Shown: positions 1,600-16,858 of the stretch, piece after piece
How the letters are laid out: every line of letters starts with the position of its first letter
Numbering within the stretch: the stretch's first letter is position 1
IMG/VR virus record: IMGVR_UViG_3300017739_000006
Source of the DNA: a virus
Length of the DNA: 64,000 nt
Direction: 5' to 3' (one strand)
The notes under the pieces: generated by a model
Databases searched by the model: none
What the model saw: the letters and a program-made list of their open reading frames with translations, nothing else
Told to the model about the DNA's origin: nothing
Translations under genes and position numbers: made by a program

Positions 1600-3899
1600 A
1601 CGTAATTAAAAGAGACGGTATCGCCGTCCCTCTCAACCTTGACAAGGTACACAAGATGGTTGAGTTAGCGTGTGATGGTCTCACTGGTGTAAGTGAATCA
1701 CAAGTTGAGATGAATGCCAATCTACAGTTCTTTGATGGCATCAAGACATCCGAAATCCAAGATATTCTTATTCGCTCAGCGAGTGATCTAATCGATTTAG
1801 ACGCTCCAAATTATCAGTATGTAGCAGCACGTCTCCTTCTGTTTAACGTACGCAAGCAGGTCTTTCCAGAGTGGGCAGACGAGGTTGGTTATCCACATCT
1901 CCAAGACCACGTACAGCGTTGTGTAGACGCAGGAGTATATGATGGCAGCATCCTAAATAAATATAGTCCTATAGAGTGGGATTGTCTGAATAGTTATATT
2001 GACCACGAACGTTGTATGGGTTTTACCTTTGCAGGGTTGAGACAAATTGTAGATAAGTATCTAGTACAGGATAGAAGCACTGGGATTCTTTATGAGACAC
2101 CTCAGTATATGTACATTATGGTTGCGGCAACACTCTTTCAAGACTATCCAAAAAATTCTAGACTTGAATATGTACAACGATACTACACAGCAACCTCCAA
2201 AGGGAAAATCAACCTCCCAACGCCAGTGCTCGCAGGAGTTCGGACAACACTTCGTCAATTTGCATCTTGTGTTCTCGTTGATGTTGATGACACCCTCGAT
2301 GGTATCTTTAGCAGTGATATGGCTATTGGTAAATACGTCGCACAACGTGCTGGTATCGGTATCAACGCAGGCAGAATCCGTGGCATCAACGCTAAAATCA
2401 GAGGTGGAGAGGTACAGCACACAGGTGTTATCCCCTTCCTCAAAAAGTTTGAATCAACTGTACGTTGCTGCACGCAAAACGGTATCAGAGGTGGTTCTGC
2501 TACAGTTCATTTTCCTATCTGGCACCAAGAAATAGAAGATATTCTTGTTCTCAAGAACAACAAAGGAACTGAAGATAACAGAGTCAGGAAACTTGACTAC
2601 TCTATTCAGATCAGTAAACTGTTCTATGAAAGATTCATTCAGAATGCGACGATCTCTTTATTCAGTCCTCACGATGTCCCTGGTCTATATGATGCTTTTG
2701 GGACTGATGATTTCGATGCTCTCTATGAGAAGTACGAGCAGGACGAAACGATTACTAGACGCACCATTGATGCATCGCAAATTGTTCTCTCACTATTGAA
2801 AGAGAGAGCAGAGACTGGTCGTATTTACATTATGAATATTGACCACTGCAATAGTCACTCTTCATTCAAAGATAAGGTTAGTATGTCTAACCTCTGTCAG
2901 GAGATCACTCTTCCTACAGATCCTATCTCTCACATTGATGATGACGGTGGTGAGATTGCATTGTGCATCCTCTCTGCTATCAACGTGGGTAAACTTCGTA
3001 ACCTCAATGAGATGGAGGAACTATGTGACCTTGCAGTACGTGGTCTTGAAGAACTAATTGAATATCAAAATTATCCTGTTAAGGCAGCAGAACGTTCTAC
3101 TCTTGCACGTAGATCACTTGGTGTTGGTTACATTGGACTAGCACATTACCTTGCTAAGAATGGTTTTAATTATGCTGATCAAGGTGCTTGGGATCTAGTT
3201 CATAGACTAACTGAGTCCTTCCAATTCAATCTACTTAAGGCATCCAATGCTATCGCTATGGAGAAGGGTGCGTGTGAAGGTTTCCAACATACAAAGTATG
3301 CCGATGGAATTCTTCCCATCGATACATATAAGAGCGAGGTAGATGAAATTTCTAACGTAGAACTTGCATATGATTGGGATAGTCTTAGGGAATCTATCAA
3401 ACAGTTCGGACTCAGGCACAGCACTCTGTCCGCACAAATGCCTTCGGAGAGTAGTTCCGTTGTGTCAAACGCAACCAATGGAATCGAACCACCTAGAGAC
3501 TACCTGTCCATTAAAAAATCAAAGAAAGGACCTCTTAAGCAGATTGTTCCAGGTTTCCCGTACTTAAAAAATAAGTACACTCTACTATGGGAAATGCCTT
3601 CCAATGAAGGTTATATTAAAATCGTCGCTGTGATGCAAAAGTTTTTTGACCAAGCAATCAGTGGCAACTGGAGTTATAATCCAGGAAATTATCCCGATAA
3701 CGAAGTACCCTCTTCCGTTATGGCAATGGACCTATTGAACACATACAAATACGGTTGGAAAACATCCTACTACCAGAACACTTATGACAATAAGAAAGAT
3801 GGTGAGGAAGAACCAACAGTGCAAATCACAAACAACGTAGATCAACTAGTAAACGAACTATTGGAGGCAGAGGAAGACTGTGACAGTTGCAAAGTTTAA
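1596..3899 (+). CDS. nrdA: Ribonucleotide reductase class Ia alpha subunit
   Basis: ATP cone VIKRDG, QFASCVL, SNLCQEI, C-terminal CDSCKV; ATG 1596 overlaps the primase stop (ATGA); no intein or intron seen. Confidence 0.97.
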   Translation: MNVIKRDGIAVPLNLDKVHKMVELACDGLTGVSESQVEMNANLQFFDGIKTSEIQDILIRSASDLIDLDAPNYQYVAARLLLFNVRKQVFPEWADEVGYPHLQDHVQRCVDAGVYDGSILNKYSPIEWDCLNSYIDHERCMGFTFAGLRQIVDKYLVQDRSTGILYETPQYMYIMVAATLFQDYPKNSRLEYVQRYYTATSKGKINLPTPVLAGVRTTLRQFASCVLVDVDDTLDGIFSSDMAIGKYVAQRAGIGINAGRIRGINAKIRGGEVQHTGVIPFLKKFESTVRCCTQNGIRGGSATVHFPIWHQEIEDILVLKNNKGTEDNRVRKLDYSIQISKLFYERFIQNATISLFSPHDVPGLYDAFGTDDFDALYEKYEQDETITRRTIDASQIVLSLLKERAETGRIYIMNIDHCNSHSSFKDKVSMSNLCQEITLPTDPISHIDDDGGEIALCILSAINVGKLRNLNEMEELCDLAVRGLEELIEYQNYPVKAAERSTLARRSLGVGYIGLAHYLAKNGFNYADQGAWDLVHRLTESFQFNLLKASNAIAMEKGACEGFQHTKYADGILPIDTYKSEVDEISNVELAYDWDSLRESIKQFGLRHSTLSAQMPSESSSVVSNATNGIEPPRDYLSIKKSKKGPLKQIVPGFPYLKNKYTLLWEMPSNEGYIKIVAVMQKFFDQAISGNWSYNPGNYPDNEVPSSVMAMDLLNTYKYGWKTSYYQNTYDNKKDGEEEPTVQITNNVDQLVNELLEAEEDCDSCKV

Positions 3900-5073
3900 A
3901 ATCTCCGAAGGAGATCAACGACCCAAGAAAGGCATCGACAAAATTACAGTATTTAATAAAACGAAACACGATACAAAAAAGCAACCAATGTTCTTCGGAC
4001 AACCTCTTGGTGTCCAGAGATATGATGCGTTTAAGTATCCTGTGTTTGATAGACTAACCAATTCACAATTAGGATTCTTTTGGAGACCCGAAGAGGTATC
4101 TCTCCAGAAGGATCGCTCTGACTTTCAAGACTTATCTGATGCACAGAAGCACATCTTTACTAGCAATCTAAGGTACCAGATTCTCTTGGACTCTGTACAA
4201 GGTCGTGGTCCTGGAATGGCATTCATTCCATATTGCTCACTACCTGAACTTGAGTCTGCGATGATTGCGTGGGAGTTTATGGAGATGATCCATAGTCGCT
4301 CTTACACATACATCATCAAAAATGTTTATGCAAACCCTGAAGAGATCTTTGATACTATTCTTGATGACGAGAAGATCGTCGCACGTGCTAAGTCTGTGAC
4401 TGAAGCATATGATGAGTTCATCAACTACGCACAGGAATGGGGACAAGGCAACTGGTGGAAGTCAGATTGGAAAGATTCTCCTTCTGCATTCTGGGAGAAG
4501 AAAGAACTCAAGCGTAGACTCTATAGAGCAGTTATGAATGTGAATATCCTTGAGGGTATTCGCTTCTATGTTTCATTCGCTTGCTCTTTTGGATTTGGTG
4601 AACTTAAAAAGATGGAAGGATCTGCTAAGATCATTTCACTTATCGCACGCGATGAGTCACAGCACCTTGTACTTACTCAGAATATTTTGAACAAGTGGAA
4701 GGAAGGTGACGATCCTGATATGATCGACATCATCAAAGAAGAAAAGCAGAACGTCTTGGAAATGTTCCAACGTTGTGTAGAAGAGGAGAAAGATTGGGCA
4801 GAGTATCTGTTCAAAGATGGTTCTATGATCGGACTCAATGCTAAACTTCTCGGACAATATGTTGAGTGGACTGCTAATCGTAGGATGAAGGCAATCGGTA
4901 TCGATCCTATCTACGATATTCCTGCTAGAAACAATCCACTTCCTTGGACAAATCATTGGTTGAACTCTAAAGGTCAACAGAATGCACCACAGGAAACTGA
5001 GATTGAATCCTATGTTGTAGGAGCAATTAAACAAGACATCAAAAAAGATACATTCTCTGGATTCAAACTTTAA
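3880..5073 (+). CDS. nrdB: Ribonucleotide reductase class Ia beta subunit
   Basis: FWRPEEV, EMIHSRSY, LEGIRFYVSF, RDESQH, APQETEIESY; GTG start. Confidence 0.97.
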   Translation: MTVAKFKISEGDQRPKKGIDKITVFNKTKHDTKKQPMFFGQPLGVQRYDAFKYPVFDRLTNSQLGFFWRPEEVSLQKDRSDFQDLSDAQKHIFTSNLRYQILLDSVQGRGPGMAFIPYCSLPELESAMIAWEFMEMIHSRSYTYIIKNVYANPEEIFDTILDDEKIVARAKSVTEAYDEFINYAQEWGQGNWWKSDWKDSPSAFWEKKELKRRLYRAVMNVNILEGIRFYVSFACSFGFGELKKMEGSAKIISLIARDESQHLVLTQNILNKWKEGDDPDMIDIIKEEKQNVLEMFQRCVEEEKDWAEYLFKDGSMIGLNAKLLGQYVEWTANRRMKAIGIDPIYDIPARNNPLPWTNHWLNSKGQQNAPQETEIESYVVGAIKQDIKKDTFSGFKL

Positions 5074-5075
5074 TT

Positions 5076-5705
5076 ATGTTTATTGGTGAAGTCCCGACCT
5101 CTGTGTCGGAACCCATCAAGGCAAGACTATTGAATAGTCCTTATTGGCCTTGGTATATGATTACTGAAACAACTGGGTATGATCCTAAGTTCAATGATTC
5201 TATCCCCGATGAAATGTCGGGGGAGGATCCTCAGTTTCAACACACAGTAGTAAACAATCAAGGAGAGATCTCTTCCCAACACGCTTGGGATATTGTTGTC
5301 GAACCTTTGTGGAAACATATATCTGAAAACTTTTCCGATGAACTTGGAGACTTTGAAAAGTTCAGACGTATCAAAATCAATCTATTAACTAGGAAAGAGT
5401 CAAAGCATTTATACCATACACCACACGTGGATTATGATTTTCCACATATGACGTTGTTGTATTATGTGAATGACTCGGATGGTCCTACGTTCTTCTTCAA
5501 TGAAACGTATGATGGATCACGTAAAAAACTGACGATGAAAACTAAGATCGAACCACGTCAAGGGAGGTTTGTTATCTTTGACGGTCATAATTTTCACGCG
5601 AGCAGTAATCCGCAATACAATGACTATCGATGCATAATCAATTTAAATTACATCTCAAGTTCCTCGGGCAACTTAAGCGGGATCTTAAACGAGATAAGGG
5701 CATAG
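5076..5705 (+). CDS. 2OG-Fe(II) oxygenase family protein
   Basis: HxD motif (PHVD), LLYYVNDSDG, distal His (FHASS), RxxxN. Confidence 0.8.
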   Translation: MFIGEVPTSVSEPIKARLLNSPYWPWYMITETTGYDPKFNDSIPDEMSGEDPQFQHTVVNNQGEISSQHAWDIVVEPLWKHISENFSDELGDFEKFRRIKINLLTRKESKHLYHTPHVDYDFPHMTLLYYVNDSDGPTFFFNETYDGSRKKLTMKTKIEPRQGRFVIFDGHNFHASSNPQYNDYRCIINLNYISSSSGNLSGILNEIRA

Positions 5706-5767
5706 GCACGCAGACGCAGTACCGTACCAACAGGAAGCGTAACAAAAAGAAAAAGATTGCTAAATAA
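5630..5767 (+). CDS. Small basic hypothetical protein, 45 aa (MHNQFKLHLKFLGQLKRDLKRDK...KKKKIAK)
   Basis: Read by eye; overlaps the 3' end of the oxygenase in another frame. Confidence 0.4.
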   Translation: MHNQFKLHLKFLGQLKRDLKRDKGIGTQTQYRTNRKRNKKKKIAK

Positions 5768-5785
5768 TACAGGATATGTTATCAT
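5757..5785 (+). promoter_or_regulatory. Sigma70-like promoter TTGCTA-N17-TATCAT, overlapping a late-type TAAATA (5761-5766)
   Basis: 17-nt spacer; predicted start near 5792, at the first base of the riboswitch-like element. Confidence 0.55.
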
Positions 5786-5792
5786 ATCCATA

Positions 5793-5830
5793 CGTTCATC
5801 TCGCAAGAGACGCAAGTAAGTCGCGGAACG
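5793..5830 (+). ncRNA. Glutamine riboswitch-like aptamer 1 (glnA / Downstream-peptide class)
   Basis: P1 CGTTC/GAACG, P2 TCTC-GCAA-GAGA, junction CGCAAGTAAG (compare CGGAAGTAAG of glnA aptamers); lies upstream of a DUF4278-like gene. Confidence 0.65.
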
Positions 5831-5833
5831 GAG

Positions 5834-6039
5834 CGTTCATCCCTATGTTTGGACCATTATTATGTTAATGCATCTAATGATTTTAGCGTATTCAGATCTC
5901 CATTGTGTCGATGCTGCTGTACTGATAGGTAGAGTTGCTAAGCACGAACAGTTATCTAGACAGGTAAAGGTTGAGATCGTTCAAACCATTCAGGAATCAA
6001 CTCCTGAGTGTCCGTGGGACGCAAACGACTAAAGGAACG
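5834..6039 (+). ncRNA. Glutamine riboswitch-like aptamer 2 with a 172-nt loop insertion containing an ORF
   Basis: P1 CGTTC(5834-38)/GAACG(6035-39), P2 TCCC(5840-43)/GGGA(6016-19), then CGCAAA; same scaffold as aptamer 1. Confidence 0.55.
5862..6032 (+). CDS. Small hypothetical protein, 56 aa (MLMHLMILAYSDLHCVD...ECPWDAND), nested in aptamer 2
   Basis: Read by eye; ATG 5862 or 5868 to TAA 6030-6032; resembles a small ORF family seen in cyanophages. Confidence 0.65.
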   Translation: MLMHLMILAYSDLHCVDAAVLIGRVAKHEQLSRQVKVEIVQTIQESTPECPWDAND

Positions 6040-6073
6040 GACCTAAAAATCCAACTACTTTAGGAGTAACCAA

Positions 6074-6217
6074 ATGGAACTTATCACGTATAGAGGCGTT
6101 AAGTATAACGCCAAAGAGTACAAAGCAAAGGTACTTGCCGAAGCATCATCAAACCGCAACCACGATTTGATGTACAGAGGCGTCAAAGTTGAACGCAAGT
6201 TCGCATCAAAGAGTTAA
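6074..6217 (+). CDS. DUF4278-like small protein (GS-inactivating-factor-like), 47 aa
   Basis: MELITYRGVKY...LMYRGVKV with two YRG motifs; SD TAGGAG upstream. Confidence 0.75.
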   Translation: MELITYRGVKYNAKEYKAKVLAEASSNRNHDLMYRGVKVERKFASKS

Positions 6218-6218
6218 G

Positions 6219-6326
6219 ATGGATCTATCATCACCGCTAATGGTGGTGGGACTCATAACATTGGGATCTGCCACGTTCCTAACCTTAATCTATGCAGAAG
6301 TAAAATTCTTGCACCAGTGGGGTTAG
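6219..6326 (+). CDS. Small membrane peptide, 35 aa
   Basis: MDLSSPLMVVGLITLGSATFLTLIYAEVKFLHQWG, single TM helix. Confidence 0.55.
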   Translation: MDLSSPLMVVGLITLGSATFLTLIYAEVKFLHQWG

Positions 6327-6330
6327 GACC

Positions 6331-6489
6331 GTGCGACTCAAGATCTCAATAGATTATGGGTTGCCAGAGTATGACGAGAATAAACACAATCCCGAAAAGG
6401 TCTTCGCCTTTCTTTGCTATCGGGGAGTGTACTATGCCAAATGGTGTAGAATAAACTTGTCATTCAATCAAAACACTTCGGTCAAATAA
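6331..6489 (+). CDS. Small hypothetical protein with a YRGV motif, 52 aa
   Basis: GTG start; ...FAFLCYRGVYYAKW...; TAA 6487-6489. Confidence 0.55.
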   Translation: MRLKISIDYGLPEYDENKHNPEKVFAFLCYRGVYYAKWCRINLSFNQNTSVK

Positions 6490-6502
6490 CTTCGTGAAAC
6501 GC

Positions 6503-6527
6503 ACACCCTTTTCAAGGGTGTTTTTTT
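6503..6527 (+). terminator. Intrinsic terminator
   Basis: ACACCCTT-TTC-AAGGGTGT followed by a T-tract. Confidence 0.8.
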
Positions 6528-6569
6528 ATGCTAGGATATATAATATTAATATAATAAGGTACTACCCGA

Positions 6570-7238
6570 ATGAAAATCTTCCTAGATTGTTCGGACCCCG
6601 AACTTATCCATCACGCAATGGAAACTTGTCTCATTGATGGTGTAACTACTAACCCTTCTCTTATGTTGAAGGCAGGTAGGAAACCTAGAGACGTGATCCA
6701 AGAAATCAGTGATCTTTTTTCTTGGGATGCTTCAATCTCTGCAGAAGTTATGGGCGATACAGCAGAAGAAATGATTGAAGCAGCAAATGAATACTATAGT
6801 ATTGCCCCCAACGTCACAGTTAAACTTCCCTGTACAAGGGAGGGACTGATTGCCTGTAGTGATCTCTCATCCGATGGTATCAGTACAAACGTAACCTTAA
6901 TTTTCTCAGTCTCACAAGCAATCCTCGCTGCAAAAGCAGGAGCATCTATGATGTCTCCTTTTGTTGGTAGACTGAATGACAATTCTTTCTCAGGTATATC
7001 ACTAGTTCAAGCAATCTCTAGAGTCTATCGTATGCACGATGTAGATACAGAGATCCTTGCTGCATCTGTACGCGAAGTGCACCAAGTCGCACGTTGTTTT
7101 GATGCAGGAGCAGACATTGTGACTATGCCATATCAAGTGTTCAATAAAATGTACAACCATATCTTGACAGACAATGGTCTAGAGAGATTTGAGAAAGACT
7201 GGGCAGAACTACAGAACCAATTACATATTGACGAATGA
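6570..7238 (+). CDS. talC: Transaldolase (TalC/Fsa type)
   Basis: IFLD, GVTTNPSL, Schiff-base VTVKLP, SPFVGRL, ILAASVR. Confidence 0.95.
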   Translation: MKIFLDCSDPELIHHAMETCLIDGVTTNPSLMLKAGRKPRDVIQEISDLFSWDASISAEVMGDTAEEMIEAANEYYSIAPNVTVKLPCTREGLIACSDLSSDGISTNVTLIFSVSQAILAAKAGASMMSPFVGRLNDNSFSGISLVQAISRVYRMHDVDTEILAASVREVHQVARCFDAGADIVTMPYQVFNKMYNHILTDNGLERFEKDWAELQNQLHIDE

Positions 7239-8296: not shown

Positions 8297-8370
8297 GGTC
8301 CAGTAGCTCAGTGGAATAGAGCAACTGCCTTCTAAGCAGTCGGTCGATGGTTCGAATCCATCCTGGATCG
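8297..8370 (+). tRNA. trnR-UCU: tRNA-Arg(TCT)
   Basis: Acceptor GGTCCAG/CTGGATC, D arm GCTC/GAGC, anticodon arm ACTGC-CTTCTAA-GCAGT, T arm GATGG-TTCGAAT-CCATC; CCA not encoded. Confidence 0.95.
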
Positions 8371-11016: not shown

Positions 11017-11063
11017 ACATAGTGTTGAATGTTACGGAATGTAAACAATTCCTCAACTATTAC

Positions 11064-11165
11064 TGCTCCCCTTAAACCGAGACCTCTAGGGAGAATAAAT
11101 TACGTCTCTCATACCTGCTGCTGAGGGTGCATCAGGAATATCTATCAGTGTTTCCCTGCACTATT
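11064..11165 (+). ncRNA. PhotoRC-II-like structured psbA leader RNA
   Basis: Pairings CTCCC/GGGAG, GAGAC/GTCTC, CCTG/CAGG, AGTG/CACT with a TTCCCT loop complementary to AGGG; position matches the known cyanophage psbA leader motif. Confidence 0.65.
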
Positions 11166-16599: not shown

Positions 16600-16795
16600 T
16601 CAATATTACCATTCTTATTTGGAGAATAAACAGAAAAAGTTCTGTATTGATGGGGTTTATGAGTCCGTAGTCTCCTATGGTTACCATTGTGATGGTAGCG
16701 ACATAACTGGACACTATGTCTTGACAGATAACTACCGTTTAGTGTATGATCGTTCTGGGTTATTTCAATACAAGGAAAAGTGGTCGAGTGGTTGA
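16586..16795 (+). CDS. Hypothetical protein whose stop lies inside tRNA-Ser
   Basis: 69-aa ORF. Confidence 0.55.
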   Translation: MLNLDQYYHSYLENKQKKFCIDGVYESVVSYGYHCDGSDITGHYVLTDNYRLVYDRSGLFQYKEKWSSG

Positions 16796-16858
16796 TGGCA
16801 TTGGTCTTGAAAACCAACGATGTGAAGGCATCCGTGGGTTCGAATCCCACCTTTTCCG
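16774..16858 (+). tRNA. trnS-UGA: tRNA-Ser(TGA)
   Basis: Acceptor GGAAAAG/CTTTTCC, anticodon arm TTGGT-CTTGAAA-ACCAA, long variable arm, T arm GTGGG-TTCGAAT-CCCAC. Confidence 0.95.

Follow-up and report, generated by a model that had tools for sequence, protein, structure and literature searches.

Two glutamine-riboswitch cores, apparently interlocked around a nested gene, in a putative operon leader of a cyanomyovirus

The locus described here raises the question of how one RNA can hold two copies of a glutamine-riboswitch scaffold when the second copy is parted by an entire gene. In the 64,000-nt stretch of viral DNA that was analysed (IMG/VR record IMGVR_UViG_3300017739_000006, referred to as the window), the scaffold CGTTCA-...-CGCAA-...-GGAACG is present twice where the preliminary description placed it, with every letter verified and 0.00 chance occurrences of the compact pattern expected in the window. 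The TCCC/GGGA stem of the second copy encloses, as described, 172 nt with a 56-aa ORF (Table 1). The assignment to a cyanomyovirus also held, relatives of the locus spanning at least ten named cyanomyovirus genera. Upstream, the arrangement TTGnnn, 16 to 18 nt, TAnnnT is also found in 137 of 155 unique relatives, ending at a distance of 7-10 nt from the first CGTTCA, and judging from its position the promoter of the window would begin transcription a few bases upstream of the first CGUUCA. We consider it probable that the locus leads a short phage operon, consisting of a promoter, a sensor with its nested gene, the DUF4278 gene, two small ORFs and a terminator, and that the two cores of the sensor are interlocked, one nested in the other. 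What the analysis demonstrates of this explanation is the pairings themselves, that they are conserved and covary, and that the nested ORF codes for protein.

Table 1. Position of the sensor, its strands and the neighbouring genes in the window; pairing partners are those of the nested model.
Feature	Position	Strand	Basis or remark
Sigma-70-type promoter, TTGCTA 5757-5762, 17 nt, TATCAT 5780-5785	5757-5785	+	9/12 matches; TG before -10
Copy 1 of scaffold, compact	5793-5830	+	letters verified
Strand a, CGUUCA, 5' strand of outer P1	5793-5798	+	C5793-C5797 would pair with G6039-G6035
Outer P1a hairpin UCUC-GCAA-GAGA, compact in this phage	5799-5810	+	hairpin covaries freely
J1 CGCAAGUA	5811-5818	+	C5813, putative linchpin partner of G6040; AGUA 5815-5818, loop-E 5' strand
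K1 AGUCG, 5' strand of shared P2	5819-5823	+	partner 6026-6030; covariation
Strand b GGAACG 5825-5830 and linker GAG 5831-5833	5825-5833	+	inner P1 3' strand and capping loop
Copy 2, CGTTCA 5834-5839, TCCC 5840-5843, 172 nt, GGGA 6016-6019, CGCAA 6020-6024		+	
Strand c CGUUCA (inner P1 5' strand) and UCCC (inner P1a 5' strand)	5834-5843	+	CGTTCA invariant
7-codon mini-ORF MFGPLLC, ATG at 5845, TAA 5866-5868	5845-5868	+	at ancestral start position
Nested gene, 56 aa, T4-like gene cluster 430, phrog_504	5862-6032	+	PHROG match E = 6e-20
GGGA (inner P1a 3' strand), J2 CGCAA with linchpin C6022, A6025	6016-6025	+	
Copy 2, 3' part, CGACT 6026-6030, TAA 6030-6032, GGAACG 6034-6039		+	
K2 CGACU (shared P2 3' strand) and AAA (loop-E 3' strand)	6026-6033	+	U6030-A6032, nested-ORF stop codon
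Expression platform, CUAAAG 6029-6034 with CUUUAG 6058-6063, overlapping Shine-Dalgarno AGGAG 6062-6066	6029-6066	+	
Strand d GGAACG (outer P1 3' strand) and G6040	6034-6040	+	G6040, putative linchpin partner of C5813
DUF4278 gene, 47 aa, two YRGV motifs, phrog_5049	6074-6217	+	Pfam PF14105, E = 1.4e-5
35-aa hydrophobic peptide	6219-6326	+	ORF
52-aa ORF, phrog_6192	6331-6489	+	PHROG
Terminator-like hairpin, then T run	6503-6521	+	distal unit 6219-6530

In the model that we favour, the outer unit would be a complete type-1 (glnA-type) glutamine aptamer to which copy 1 contributes its 5' half and copy 2 its 3' half. Its P1 would pair CGUUC (5793-5797) with GAACG (6035-6039), its P1a would be the hairpin at 5799-5810, its loop-E would set AGUA (5815-5818) against AAA (6031-6033), and its P2 would join AGUCG (5819-5823) to CGACU (6026-6030). 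This P2, having no capping loop, would open into a second, circularly permuted core, the inner unit, whose P1 would be formed by CGUUC (5834-5838) with GAACG (5826-5830) capped by GAG, and whose P1a, UCCC (5840-5843) with GGGA (6016-6019), would close the 172-nt loop with the 56-aa gene, followed by J2 (CGCAA, 6020-6024). Across all parsed loci strand a is invariant, and the linker between the cores is always 3-4 nt long with GA at its start. The hairpin of strands b and c is present both in the ViennaRNA minimum-energy fold and in the RNAalifold prediction.

Both units are glutamine-riboswitch cores, as had been claimed, each with all the ligand-site letters of PMC6698751 (CGUUC, CGC and GGAACGG); in the model, both would bind L-glutamine. 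The P1 letters CGUUC/GAACG of RF01739, with their conserved flanking A and G, occur twice, with strand partners assigned by the model; a covarying P1a lies directly after CGUUCA and before CGSAA; and J1 CGCAAGUA agrees with the RF01739 consensus CGGAAGUA. Beside P2, the loop-E of the class (AGUA opposite GAA) appears as AGUA/AAA in the window, with GAA in many relatives, P2 itself being closed by the second core and not by a loop. The letters of the linchpin pair, which joins the third letter of CGS to the base after GGAACG, are found in both cores. The DUF4278/IF17-like gene and translational platform generally seen with glutamine riboswitches are likewise present, given a Pfam match and a covarying anti-Shine-Dalgarno helix. 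In Rfam, copy 1 of the window scores 24.9 bits with Glutamine RF01739 (cut-off 35) and 24.7 bits with Glutamine-II RF01704 (cut-off 33), and no RF01739 match spanning the ORF was found in the window, which stays below the gathering score because of the 172-nt insertion and the nested layout. ORF-free relatives do exceed the RF01739 gathering score (42.9, 35.5 and 35.3 bits). As to RF01704, whose P2 hairpin holds GGAACG in its loop, no 3' strand of this hairpin was found downstream of either GGAACG in the window; AGUCG has its partner in the other unit, at a distance of 200 nt.

Three pairings covary in 172 unique related loci, namely the stem over the ORF, AGTCG/CGACT and the anti-Shine-Dalgarno helix. 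For the stem over the ORF, where loci were collected via the protein and not via the RNA, positions 1-4 are canonical in all 81 unique stem-end pairs, with the types CG, TA, AT and TG represented and with variants that include longer ones (e.g., TCCTCA/TGAGGA and TCTA/TAGA), which bears out the covariation expected of it. The AGUCG/CGACU helix occurs as 25 distinct sequence pairs in the 172 loci, with positions 1, 2, 4 and 5 canonical in 98-99%; compensatory variants include ATTCG/CGAAT, AGTCA/TGACT, AGTTG/CAACT and GGACGACG/CGCCGCCC, and the observed level of pairing was reached in 0 of 5000 partner shuffles. The exact complementarity noticed at the outset is therefore real, conserved and covarying. 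In its 8-nt form, this P2 helix is 94-95% canonical at positions 7-8 and has recurrent C-A mismatches at positions 3 and 6; it would be weak without tertiary support. Finally, in the anti-Shine-Dalgarno helix, CURAAG/CUUYAG, R covaries with Y, and A stands opposite C in 0 of 172 loci.

How these helices are connected is a separate matter, as the two units could also lie side by side, each CGUUC pairing with the GAACG of its own copy, with AGUCG/CGACU as a kissing or pseudoknot contact. Each unit would then have glutamine-II topology, its missing P2 strand lent by the other unit; in a milder form, the side-by-side fold would arise first during transcription and later exchange strands into the nested fold. 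Indeed, the strand after CGCA runs directly into GGAACG as in the glutamine-II Rfam alignment, copy 1 alone scores about 25 bits in both Rfam models, the K segments are near-palindromic, as expected of a symmetric dimer-like contact, and a glutamine-II RNA formed a domain-swapped dimer in the crystal and is functional in two pieces (PMC6698751). The order of transcription also favours pairing of strands a and b: about 200 nt are transcribed between the first GGAACG and the last, so that the tandem fold can arise before the nested one. Nor are the energies far apart, at -71.6 kcal/mol for the tandem fold, to which the kiss adds about -4.5 to -6.6, and -74.0 kcal/mol for the full nested aptamer fold; the minimum-energy fold is at -79.0 kcal/mol. 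As all four P1 strands are invariant across relatives, the choice of P1 partners rests on the linchpin, a long-range contact of the third CGC letter with the base that follows GGAACG (C19:G41 in PMC6698751). In the window, nested pairing would join C5813 to G6040 and C6022 to G5831 of the linker. In 17 unique loci J1 reads CGG and a C follows the last GGAACG, while J2 stays CGC and the G after the middle GGAACG is kept; in the remaining 140 loci the linchpin is C with G. This G-with-C variant fits nested pairing only, as side-by-side pairing would break both linchpin pairs in the 17 loci (G-G and C-C), although the change may be a single evolutionary event in one clade. The top Rfam score also belongs to the nested reading: in one ORF-free relative (L197), the RF01739 match of 42.9 bits (cut-off 35) runs from the first CGUUCA to the last GGAACG with AGU...ACU as P2, and its single copies reach only 20-31 bits. 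RNAalifold, given 28 ORF-free loci, predicts the a-d and b-c pairings unaided, and the strict 3-4 nt linker is what a hairpin loop would require. We therefore regard side-by-side aptamers as quite unlikely and favour one aptamer nested in the other; of the proposed kiss the pairing stands, and it is better read as the P2 of the nested aptamer than as a contact between neighbouring aptamers.

Two local pairings were rejected. Copy 2 could be a compact aptamer using the CGTTCA inside the ORF at 5978-5983 in place of that at 5834, in keeping with the scaffold pattern and a weak Rfam match (15.9 bits, E = 1.4) at 5976-6043. This internal CGTTCA, however, occurs in only 2 of 136 loci (the window and its nearest relative) and has no P1a stem beside it, whereas the copy at 5834 is invariant and its stem covaries with GGGA, so that we give such an aptamer almost no credence. 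The Rfam Glutamine-II alignment suggests that K1 pairs over 3 bp with the start of copy 2, but such a pairing is inconsistent across linker variants.

The nested ORF is a real gene by its pattern of sequence change: it is open in 135 of 136 loci, which comprise 127 distinct proteins, its proteins are only 21-86% identical, its codon-position entropies (1.35 / 0.85 / 1.61) show a coding substitution pattern, and two cysteines (Cys15 and Cys50) are invariant, so that the second core is closed across a real ORF, as claimed. It ends W-D-A-N-D-stop; its last codons do not vary at any of the three positions, and the final six, counting the stop, are at the same time aptamer core. AlphaFold2 models the protein as a two-helix hairpin (pLDDT 82). 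The model had no match at E <= 0.001 in the PDB by Foldseek, being a generic helical hairpin, and the ESM Atlas returned viral clusters without names only; the ORF itself had no match in Pfam, and a word-based protein search retrieved its own cluster and one other only. In 114 of the 135 loci its start codon directly follows the 4-nt stem strand. At this ancestral start position the window, together with only two relatives (L007 and L055), has a mini-ORF, the TAA of which overlaps the second ATG (5868) of the 56-aa ORF, which places the main start codon of this sub-lineage 18 nt into the loop, while in most relatives it lies in the stem. The same design recurs in the outer unit, where in 37 of 172 unique loci P1a closes over an ORF of 60-70 aa (phrog_6471), whose start codon is in or next to the 5' strand of the stem and whose stop codon falls in the 3' strand or in J1. 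This ORF is paralogous to the nested one by profile comparison (hhalign probability 96.4%, E = 1.2e-9); BLASTP between the two families gave no significant match.

We tentatively propose the following working of the locus. In the absence of glutamine, CUAAAG (6029-6034) would pair with CUUUAG (6058-6063), a helix that is part of the minimum-energy fold and spans a small hairpin of GGA (6039-6041) with UCC (6050-6052), and would hide the Shine-Dalgarno site of the DUF4278 gene. When glutamine is present, both cores would fold and draw CUAAAG out of the anti-Shine-Dalgarno helix, and the DUF4278 gene would therefore be translated, as in known glutamine riboswitches. The same fold would bury the 5' end, a GGAG (G5830-G5833) that is a possible Shine-Dalgarno site of the nested ORF, and the start region of this ORF, which would therefore be turned down; such repression is less obvious in the window than in most relatives because its inner P1a has just 4 bp and does not include the main start codon. 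A ribosome on the nested ORF, on the other hand, would have to melt P1a, J2, P2 and the outer P1 and would stop inside the anti-Shine-Dalgarno strand; since it melts the core, translation of the nested ORF and sensing would then be mutually exclusive. The coupling of ribosome transit, glutamine binding and a long-range helix that the preliminary description suggested is plausible, as the stop codon and the last codons sit inside the aptamer core. In a bolder reading, which we think possible but less likely than not, a polycistronic phage mRNA would build two interlocked glutamine sensors from its intercistronic segments, with glutamine turning the nested Cys-hairpin genes off and the DUF4278 (glutamine-synthetase-inhibitor-like) gene on, and ribosomes on the nested genes resetting or gating the sensor. 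Within this proposal we infer ligand binding by both cores, the direction of nested-ORF control, be it by glutamine or by ribosome traffic, and the effect of the ribosome. The identity of the downstream gene as DUF4278-like was upheld with a Pfam score of 25.8 bits, just above the cut-off of 25.3. If the bolder reading is true, the locus would be a riboswitch whose aptamer is made of the boundaries of coding genes and which combines metabolite level with translation.

The structure may instead be real and the ORFs mere passengers, with P1a loops that tolerate insertions and a switch that governs the DUF4278 gene only, translation of the nested ORF being without regulatory significance. All four combinations of compact and ORF-bearing stems do occur (106, 30, 29 and 7 unique loci), which means that the ORFs are dispensable to the sensor, and compact variants share ocean samples with ORF-bearing ones. 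Passengers would not, however, be expected to be embedded as tightly and repeatedly as these are, with the start codon next to the stem strand, the stop codon within both the aptamer core and the anti-Shine-Dalgarno strand, and a paralogous gene similarly placed in the other stem; moreover, a ribosome on the ORF cannot coexist with the fold. We thus think it unlikely that the ORFs are only carried along.

The riboswitch class itself is already known, and it is for the interlocked, ORF-enclosing layout that we found no paper. With the type-1 glutamine riboswitch (glnA RNA, RF01739; gifB leader of Synechocystis, PMC6212724) the phage RNA shares CGUUCA, CGSAAGUA and GAAGGAACG, a three-way junction of P1, P1a and P2 with loop-E and linchpin pair, and its place before a DUF4278 (IF17-like) gene, with which the glutamine riboswitch is known to be associated (PMC6212724), behind an anti-Shine-Dalgarno platform that suggests, by analogy, an ON switch. 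It differs in that its P2 opens into a second core and not a hairpin, its P1 has a span of about 240 nt, entire genes are enclosed by one or both P1a stems, and it is found in phages. Glutamine-II (Downstream-peptide motif, RF01704; PMC6698751) agrees with the phage RNA in its ligand-site letters, among them CGC and its partner, the G that follows GGAACG; the phage RNA lacks its P2 hairpin 3' of GGAACG. The CGUUC/GGAACG helix of Glutamine-II can form between separate chains (PMC6698751), which makes a split aptamer physically plausible. The Glutamine-II dimer is regarded as a crystal artefact (PMC7357161), whereas the phage cores, both within one RNA, appear built to share strands and, if the proposal is true, would be a natural counterpart of the strand-swapped dimer so dismissed. 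Like tandem riboswitches (the glycine riboswitch and 'tandem' glnA RNAs, PMC2864571), the phage leader has two putative ligand-binding cores and potentially a steeper response. Its cores are nested and share a helix, however, where those of tandem riboswitches stand end to end, and coding sequence parts their halves.

In mgtA/mgtL of Salmonella and in attenuation leader peptides, RNA folding of a sensing leader likewise has to compete with ribosomes that translate an ORF within it. The ORFs concerned encode short regulatory peptides and lie in the expression platform, whereas the phage ORF encodes a conserved folded protein and lies inside an aptamer stem-loop. Group I introns of T4-like phages carry ORFs in peripheral loops and, like the phage leader, assemble a structured RNA core across a loop with a whole gene; the intron core is a ribozyme and its ORF a mobility gene, while the phage core would be a metabolite sensor. 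To our knowledge, an aptamer stem closing over a functional gene would be the first known natural case. No published account of an interlocked, gene-enclosing architecture was found in the literature, the 'tandem' drawings of Ames and Breaker (2011) lying outside the comparison. Riboswitches are regarded as rare in phages, one survey having found two glutamine aptamers in cyanophages (PMC5473149) and a second two among 133 phage genomes (PMC9004378).

The layout extends well beyond this phage, being one of four cassette variants in more than 400 cyanophage records; some relatives have a paralogous ORF in the other stem, some have ORFs in both stems, and some have none in either. In GenBank, 413 cyanophage records contain the 36-nt junction core, 290 of them at >= 99% identity, and it is unannotated throughout because the interlocked, ORF-interrupted layout defeats covariance-model scans. 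This suggests a general blind spot, in that large insertions in tolerant loops may conceal further riboswitch classes. The locus offers a compact, testable system for setting ribosome traffic against ligand binding on one RNA, and it hints at the way in which the nitrogen status of Synechococcus and Prochlorococcus is sensed by abundant ocean viruses. A sample of 301 genomes from the picocyanobacterial order, to which the hosts belong, yielded no host copy of the locus. Five pattern matches were obtained there, three of them chance matches within coding sequence; the other two are real but seem to be phage DNA binned with host genomes, because they are flanked by homologues of phage genes of the window (nrdB in one, DUF4278 and the 52-aa ORF at 6331 in the other). 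Among prokaryote genome contigs the architecture was present in 0 of the first 120 matches to a 15-letter junction pattern, a search dominated by chance matches that does not imply absence. Contigs from four RNA libraries cover the locus and break at the conserved cores, and cannot prove transcription, ends, strand or level. Apparent joints skipping 167-174 nt, which might be taken for splicing, come from other phage genotypes, in which the stem is compact or holds a different ORF.

We propose a revised reading of the tandem glutamine sensor of this cyanophage, favouring one aptamer nested in the other with a shared P2 helix rather than the two kissing aptamers of the preliminary description. 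That description was largely right in its interpretation, and the promoter, both scaffold copies, the nested ORF and the DUF4278 gene were each found where it had placed them; what changes is the geometry. The source record is a complete 182-kb T4-like cyanomyovirus, and the compact scaffold has a chance expectation of 0.00 occurrences. Glutamine riboswitches in T4-like cyanophages have already been published (PMC9964418, PMC9602691), tandem glnA RNAs have been mentioned (PMC2864571) and phage riboswitches are treated as rare (PMC5473149, PMC9004378); our literature search found no paper on aptamer-nested genes or an interlocked fold. The riboswitch class itself is known.

Features of the sensor locus and its surroundings in the window
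Feature	Position	Remark
nrdB	3880-5073	upstream neighbour of the sensor locus
2OG-Fe(II) oxygenase	5076-5705	between nrdB and the sensor locus
Promoter-like TTGCTA-17 nt-TATCAT	5757-5785	
Copy 1	5793-5830	
CGTTCA-TCCC	5834-5843	
Mini-ORF MFGPLLC, 7 codons	5845-5870 region	ancestral start position of the nested gene
Nested ORF	5862-6032	inside a 172-nt stretch
GGGA-CGCAA-A-CGACT-AAA-GGAACG	6016-6039	
DUF4278 gene	6074-6217	
Terminator-like hairpin	6503-6521	closes the transcription unit
talC (transaldolase)	6570-7238	downstream neighbour of the sensor locus
tRNA gene	8297-8370	Rfam
PhotoRC-II RNA	11054-11149	Rfam
tRNA gene	16774-16858	Rfam

In a blastn search the region had matches in 430 GenBank phage records, every one from a cyanophage, and the 36-nt junction core alone matched 413 GenBank records (290 at at least 99% identity), none of which annotates the core. 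Twelve annotated relatives from at least 10 named genera, 71 viral contigs retrieved through the nested protein and not through the RNA, and 120 further contigs retrieved through the junction pattern were parsed to 172 unique loci, to all of which one plan is common. Its first half runs from strand a (CGTTCA) through the outer stem P1a(1), CGCAAGTA, K1 (AGUCG in the window) and strand b (GGAACG) to a 3-4 nt linker, and its second half from strand c (CGTTCA) through the inner stem P1a(2), CGCAA, K2 (CGACU in the window) and RAA to strand d (GGAACG); beyond it lie a small hairpin, CTTYAGGAG and the start codon (ATG) of the next gene. Each P1a stem is either a short hairpin or closed over a whole ORF: 106 unique loci share the window's type, with P1a(1) compact and an ORF in P1a(2), 30 have ORFs in both, 29 are compact in both and 7 have an ORF in P1a(1) with P1a(2) compact.

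In three contigs from RNA libraries of the same ocean samples (X13, X16, X18) the 172-nt ORF loop (window 5841-6017) gives way to some 9 letters or to another ORF, about 170 nt long, so that compact and gene-bearing stems coexist in natural populations. The cargo under the switch varies as well, since in five relatives (L105, L126, L132, L135, L167) the 47-aa DUF4278 form is replaced by a longer gene that starts MNTL and carries several YRG motifs. Among 301 sampled genomes of the picocyanobacterial order there were only two real instances of the locus, each of them flanked by genes homologous to phage genes of the window. These phage-type loci lie in assemblies filed as picocyanobacterial genomes, L328 (G264:C3) alongside a phage-type nrdB and L330 (G246:C1) with genes homologous to orf6331 and to the DUF4278 gene of the window; they look like viral contigs that were binned together with host DNA, or like infected cells.

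Comparison of the relatives indicates that the long-range P1a stems are real, as had been proposed for the stem of copy 2 enclosing the ORF. Positions 1-4 of P1a(2) closed over an ORF are canonical in 81/81 unique stem-end pairs, by CG, TA, AT and TG, and longer variants include TCCTCA/TGAGGA, TCTA/TAGA and TCCCATG/CATGGGA, the last of which pairs the start codon itself; P1a(1) behaves likewise over its ORF (TCCA/TGGA, TCTCATG/CATGAGA, TCTCAC/GTGAGA). The enclosed ORF also holds up as a real gene, being open in 135 of 136 loci, encoding 127 distinct proteins of 49-66 aa and showing codon-position entropies of 1.35 / 0.85 / 1.61 in its body. In its last codons each of the three positions is frozen, so that the RNA at least partly dictates the W-D-A-N-D tail. 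The protein belongs to phrog_504, a family of unknown function, has invariant Cys15 and Cys50, and is modelled by AlphaFold2 as a two-helix hairpin (pLDDT 82) for which no informative fold match was found. The ORF in the other stem of relatives (phrog_6471) matches it over the Cys-to-Cys core (hhalign probability 96.4%, E = 1.2e-9), which identifies it as a paralogue, and this paralogy would fit a history in which aptamer and nested gene were duplicated in tandem as one unit. In 114/135 loci the start codon comes immediately after the 4-nt strand of the stem. In the window, where the inner P1a has 4 bp only, and in its nearest relatives the start is shifted: an ATG at 5845 opens the mini-ORF, and the TAA that ends it shares bases with the nested gene's second ATG at 5868 (TAATG), a hint that translation of the two may be coupled in this sub-lineage.

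The AGTCG/CGACT pairing of K1 with K2, previously described as a possible aptamer-aptamer kiss, is real, as its covariation shows, and we now place it as the shared P2 of nested aptamers. Positions 1, 2, 4 and 5 are 98-99% canonical across the 172 loci, and positions 7 and 8 of the 8-nt form are 94-95% canonical; one weakness of the case is that C-A mismatches recur in that form, at positions 3 and 6. The 25 distinct combinations include the compensatory variants ATTCG/CGAAT, AGTCA/TGACT, AGTTG/CAACT, AGCCGACA/TGCCGACT and GGACGACG/CGCCGCCC, three-letter insertions are gained by K1 and K2 together, and 0/5000 partner shuffles among the combinations reach the observed pairing. AGUA stands before K1, and GAA or AAA after K2; in Rfam alignments these are the two loop-E strands flanking P2 in the type-1 consensus CGGAAGUA-P2-GAAGGAACG, so that copy 1 contributes its 5′ half and copy 2 its 3′ half to one complete type-1 aptamer. 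The inner unit (c, P1a(2), CGCAA, K2 ... K1, C, b), in which all ligand-site letters are present, would be a circularly permuted aptamer with its P2 common to the outer one.

Copy 1 of the window scores 24.9 bits for Glutamine and 24.7 bits for Glutamine-II, below the Rfam thresholds (35 bits for RF01739), and no match bridges the nested ORF in the window, while the ORF-free relative L197 passes RF01739 with its best score, 42.9 bits, for the nested reading, in which P2 takes a 48-nt insertion. For single copies RF01739 gives 20.8-35.5 bits in the five loci examined, two second copies being barely at the cut-off. RNAalifold, unaided, predicts a-d, b-c and both P1a stems on 28 ORF-free loci. 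A side-by-side tandem fold uses the identical strands, is able to form earlier during transcription, and may then exchange strands with the nested fold. In the glutamine-II crystal structure the third letter of CGC pairs at long range with the base after GGAACG (C19:G41; PMC6698751). In 17 unique loci, which may reflect a single evolutionary event, J1 (the segment after P1a(1)) reads CGG and d is followed by C, with J2 (after P1a(2)) staying CGC and the base after b staying G; the other loci have C paired with G, and the variant is also seen in the RNAalifold alignment. Only a-d with c-b keeps both long-range pairs, and the b-c linker of always 3-4 nt fits the requirement of a hairpin loop; like the L197 score and the RNAalifold prediction, both results favour the nested reading.

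An expression platform is provided by CURAAG. Its letters are shared with the last part of K2, the loop-E strand, the initial G of d and the nested-ORF stop codon, and its pairing partner CUUYAG runs into the Shine-Dalgarno AGGAG. Throughout the 172 loci R = A is always accompanied by Y = T, and R = G by C or T, with no exception. The ViennaRNA minimum-energy fold of 5791-6080 (-79.0 kcal/mol) includes this helix, the b-c hairpin and P1a(1), and the full nested aptamer, when forced, reaches -74.0 kcal/mol; binding of the ligand together with tertiary contacts could plausibly make up this difference of about 5 kcal/mol. The arrangement fits the ON-switch behaviour demonstrated for gifB and for a DUF4278 gene of Prochlorococcus (PMC6212724). 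We infer that glutamine would fold both cores, freeing the DUF4278 ribosome-binding site and burying the start region of the nested gene, whose translation would in turn unfold the sensor.

The transcript would begin at the sensor, since 137/155 unique relatives have a sigma-70-type promoter whose end lies 7-10 nt ahead of strand a, with or without an ORF in P1a(1). Contigs from four RNA libraries cover the locus, although such contigs cannot prove transcription or map transcript ends. A 7-bp inverted repeat (GGATATG-TTAT-CATATCC, 5772-5789) spans the -10 box of the window; perfect repeats of at least 6 bp occur there in 91/144 unique relatives versus 12/144 after shuffling, with 58 different arm sequences, so that complementarity and not the letters is conserved. 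The repeat may serve as an operator or as a processing hairpin in read-through RNA, or have some other role. Just upstream of the -35 box, about 45-60 nt before the first CGTTCA, 94/159 unique relatives (e.g. L019-L021, L029) carry an NtcA-like GTA-N8-TAC palindrome, suggesting that transcription is under nitrogen control in many of them; the window has GTAACAAAAAGAAA there, without the TAC half. Six relatives (L002, L003, L005, L006, L024, L037) are without a sigma-70-type promoter upstream of the sensor and have TATAAATA, which resembles the T4 late-promoter motif. Elsewhere in the window a PhotoRC-II RNA (72 bits) and two tRNA genes are above Rfam thresholds.
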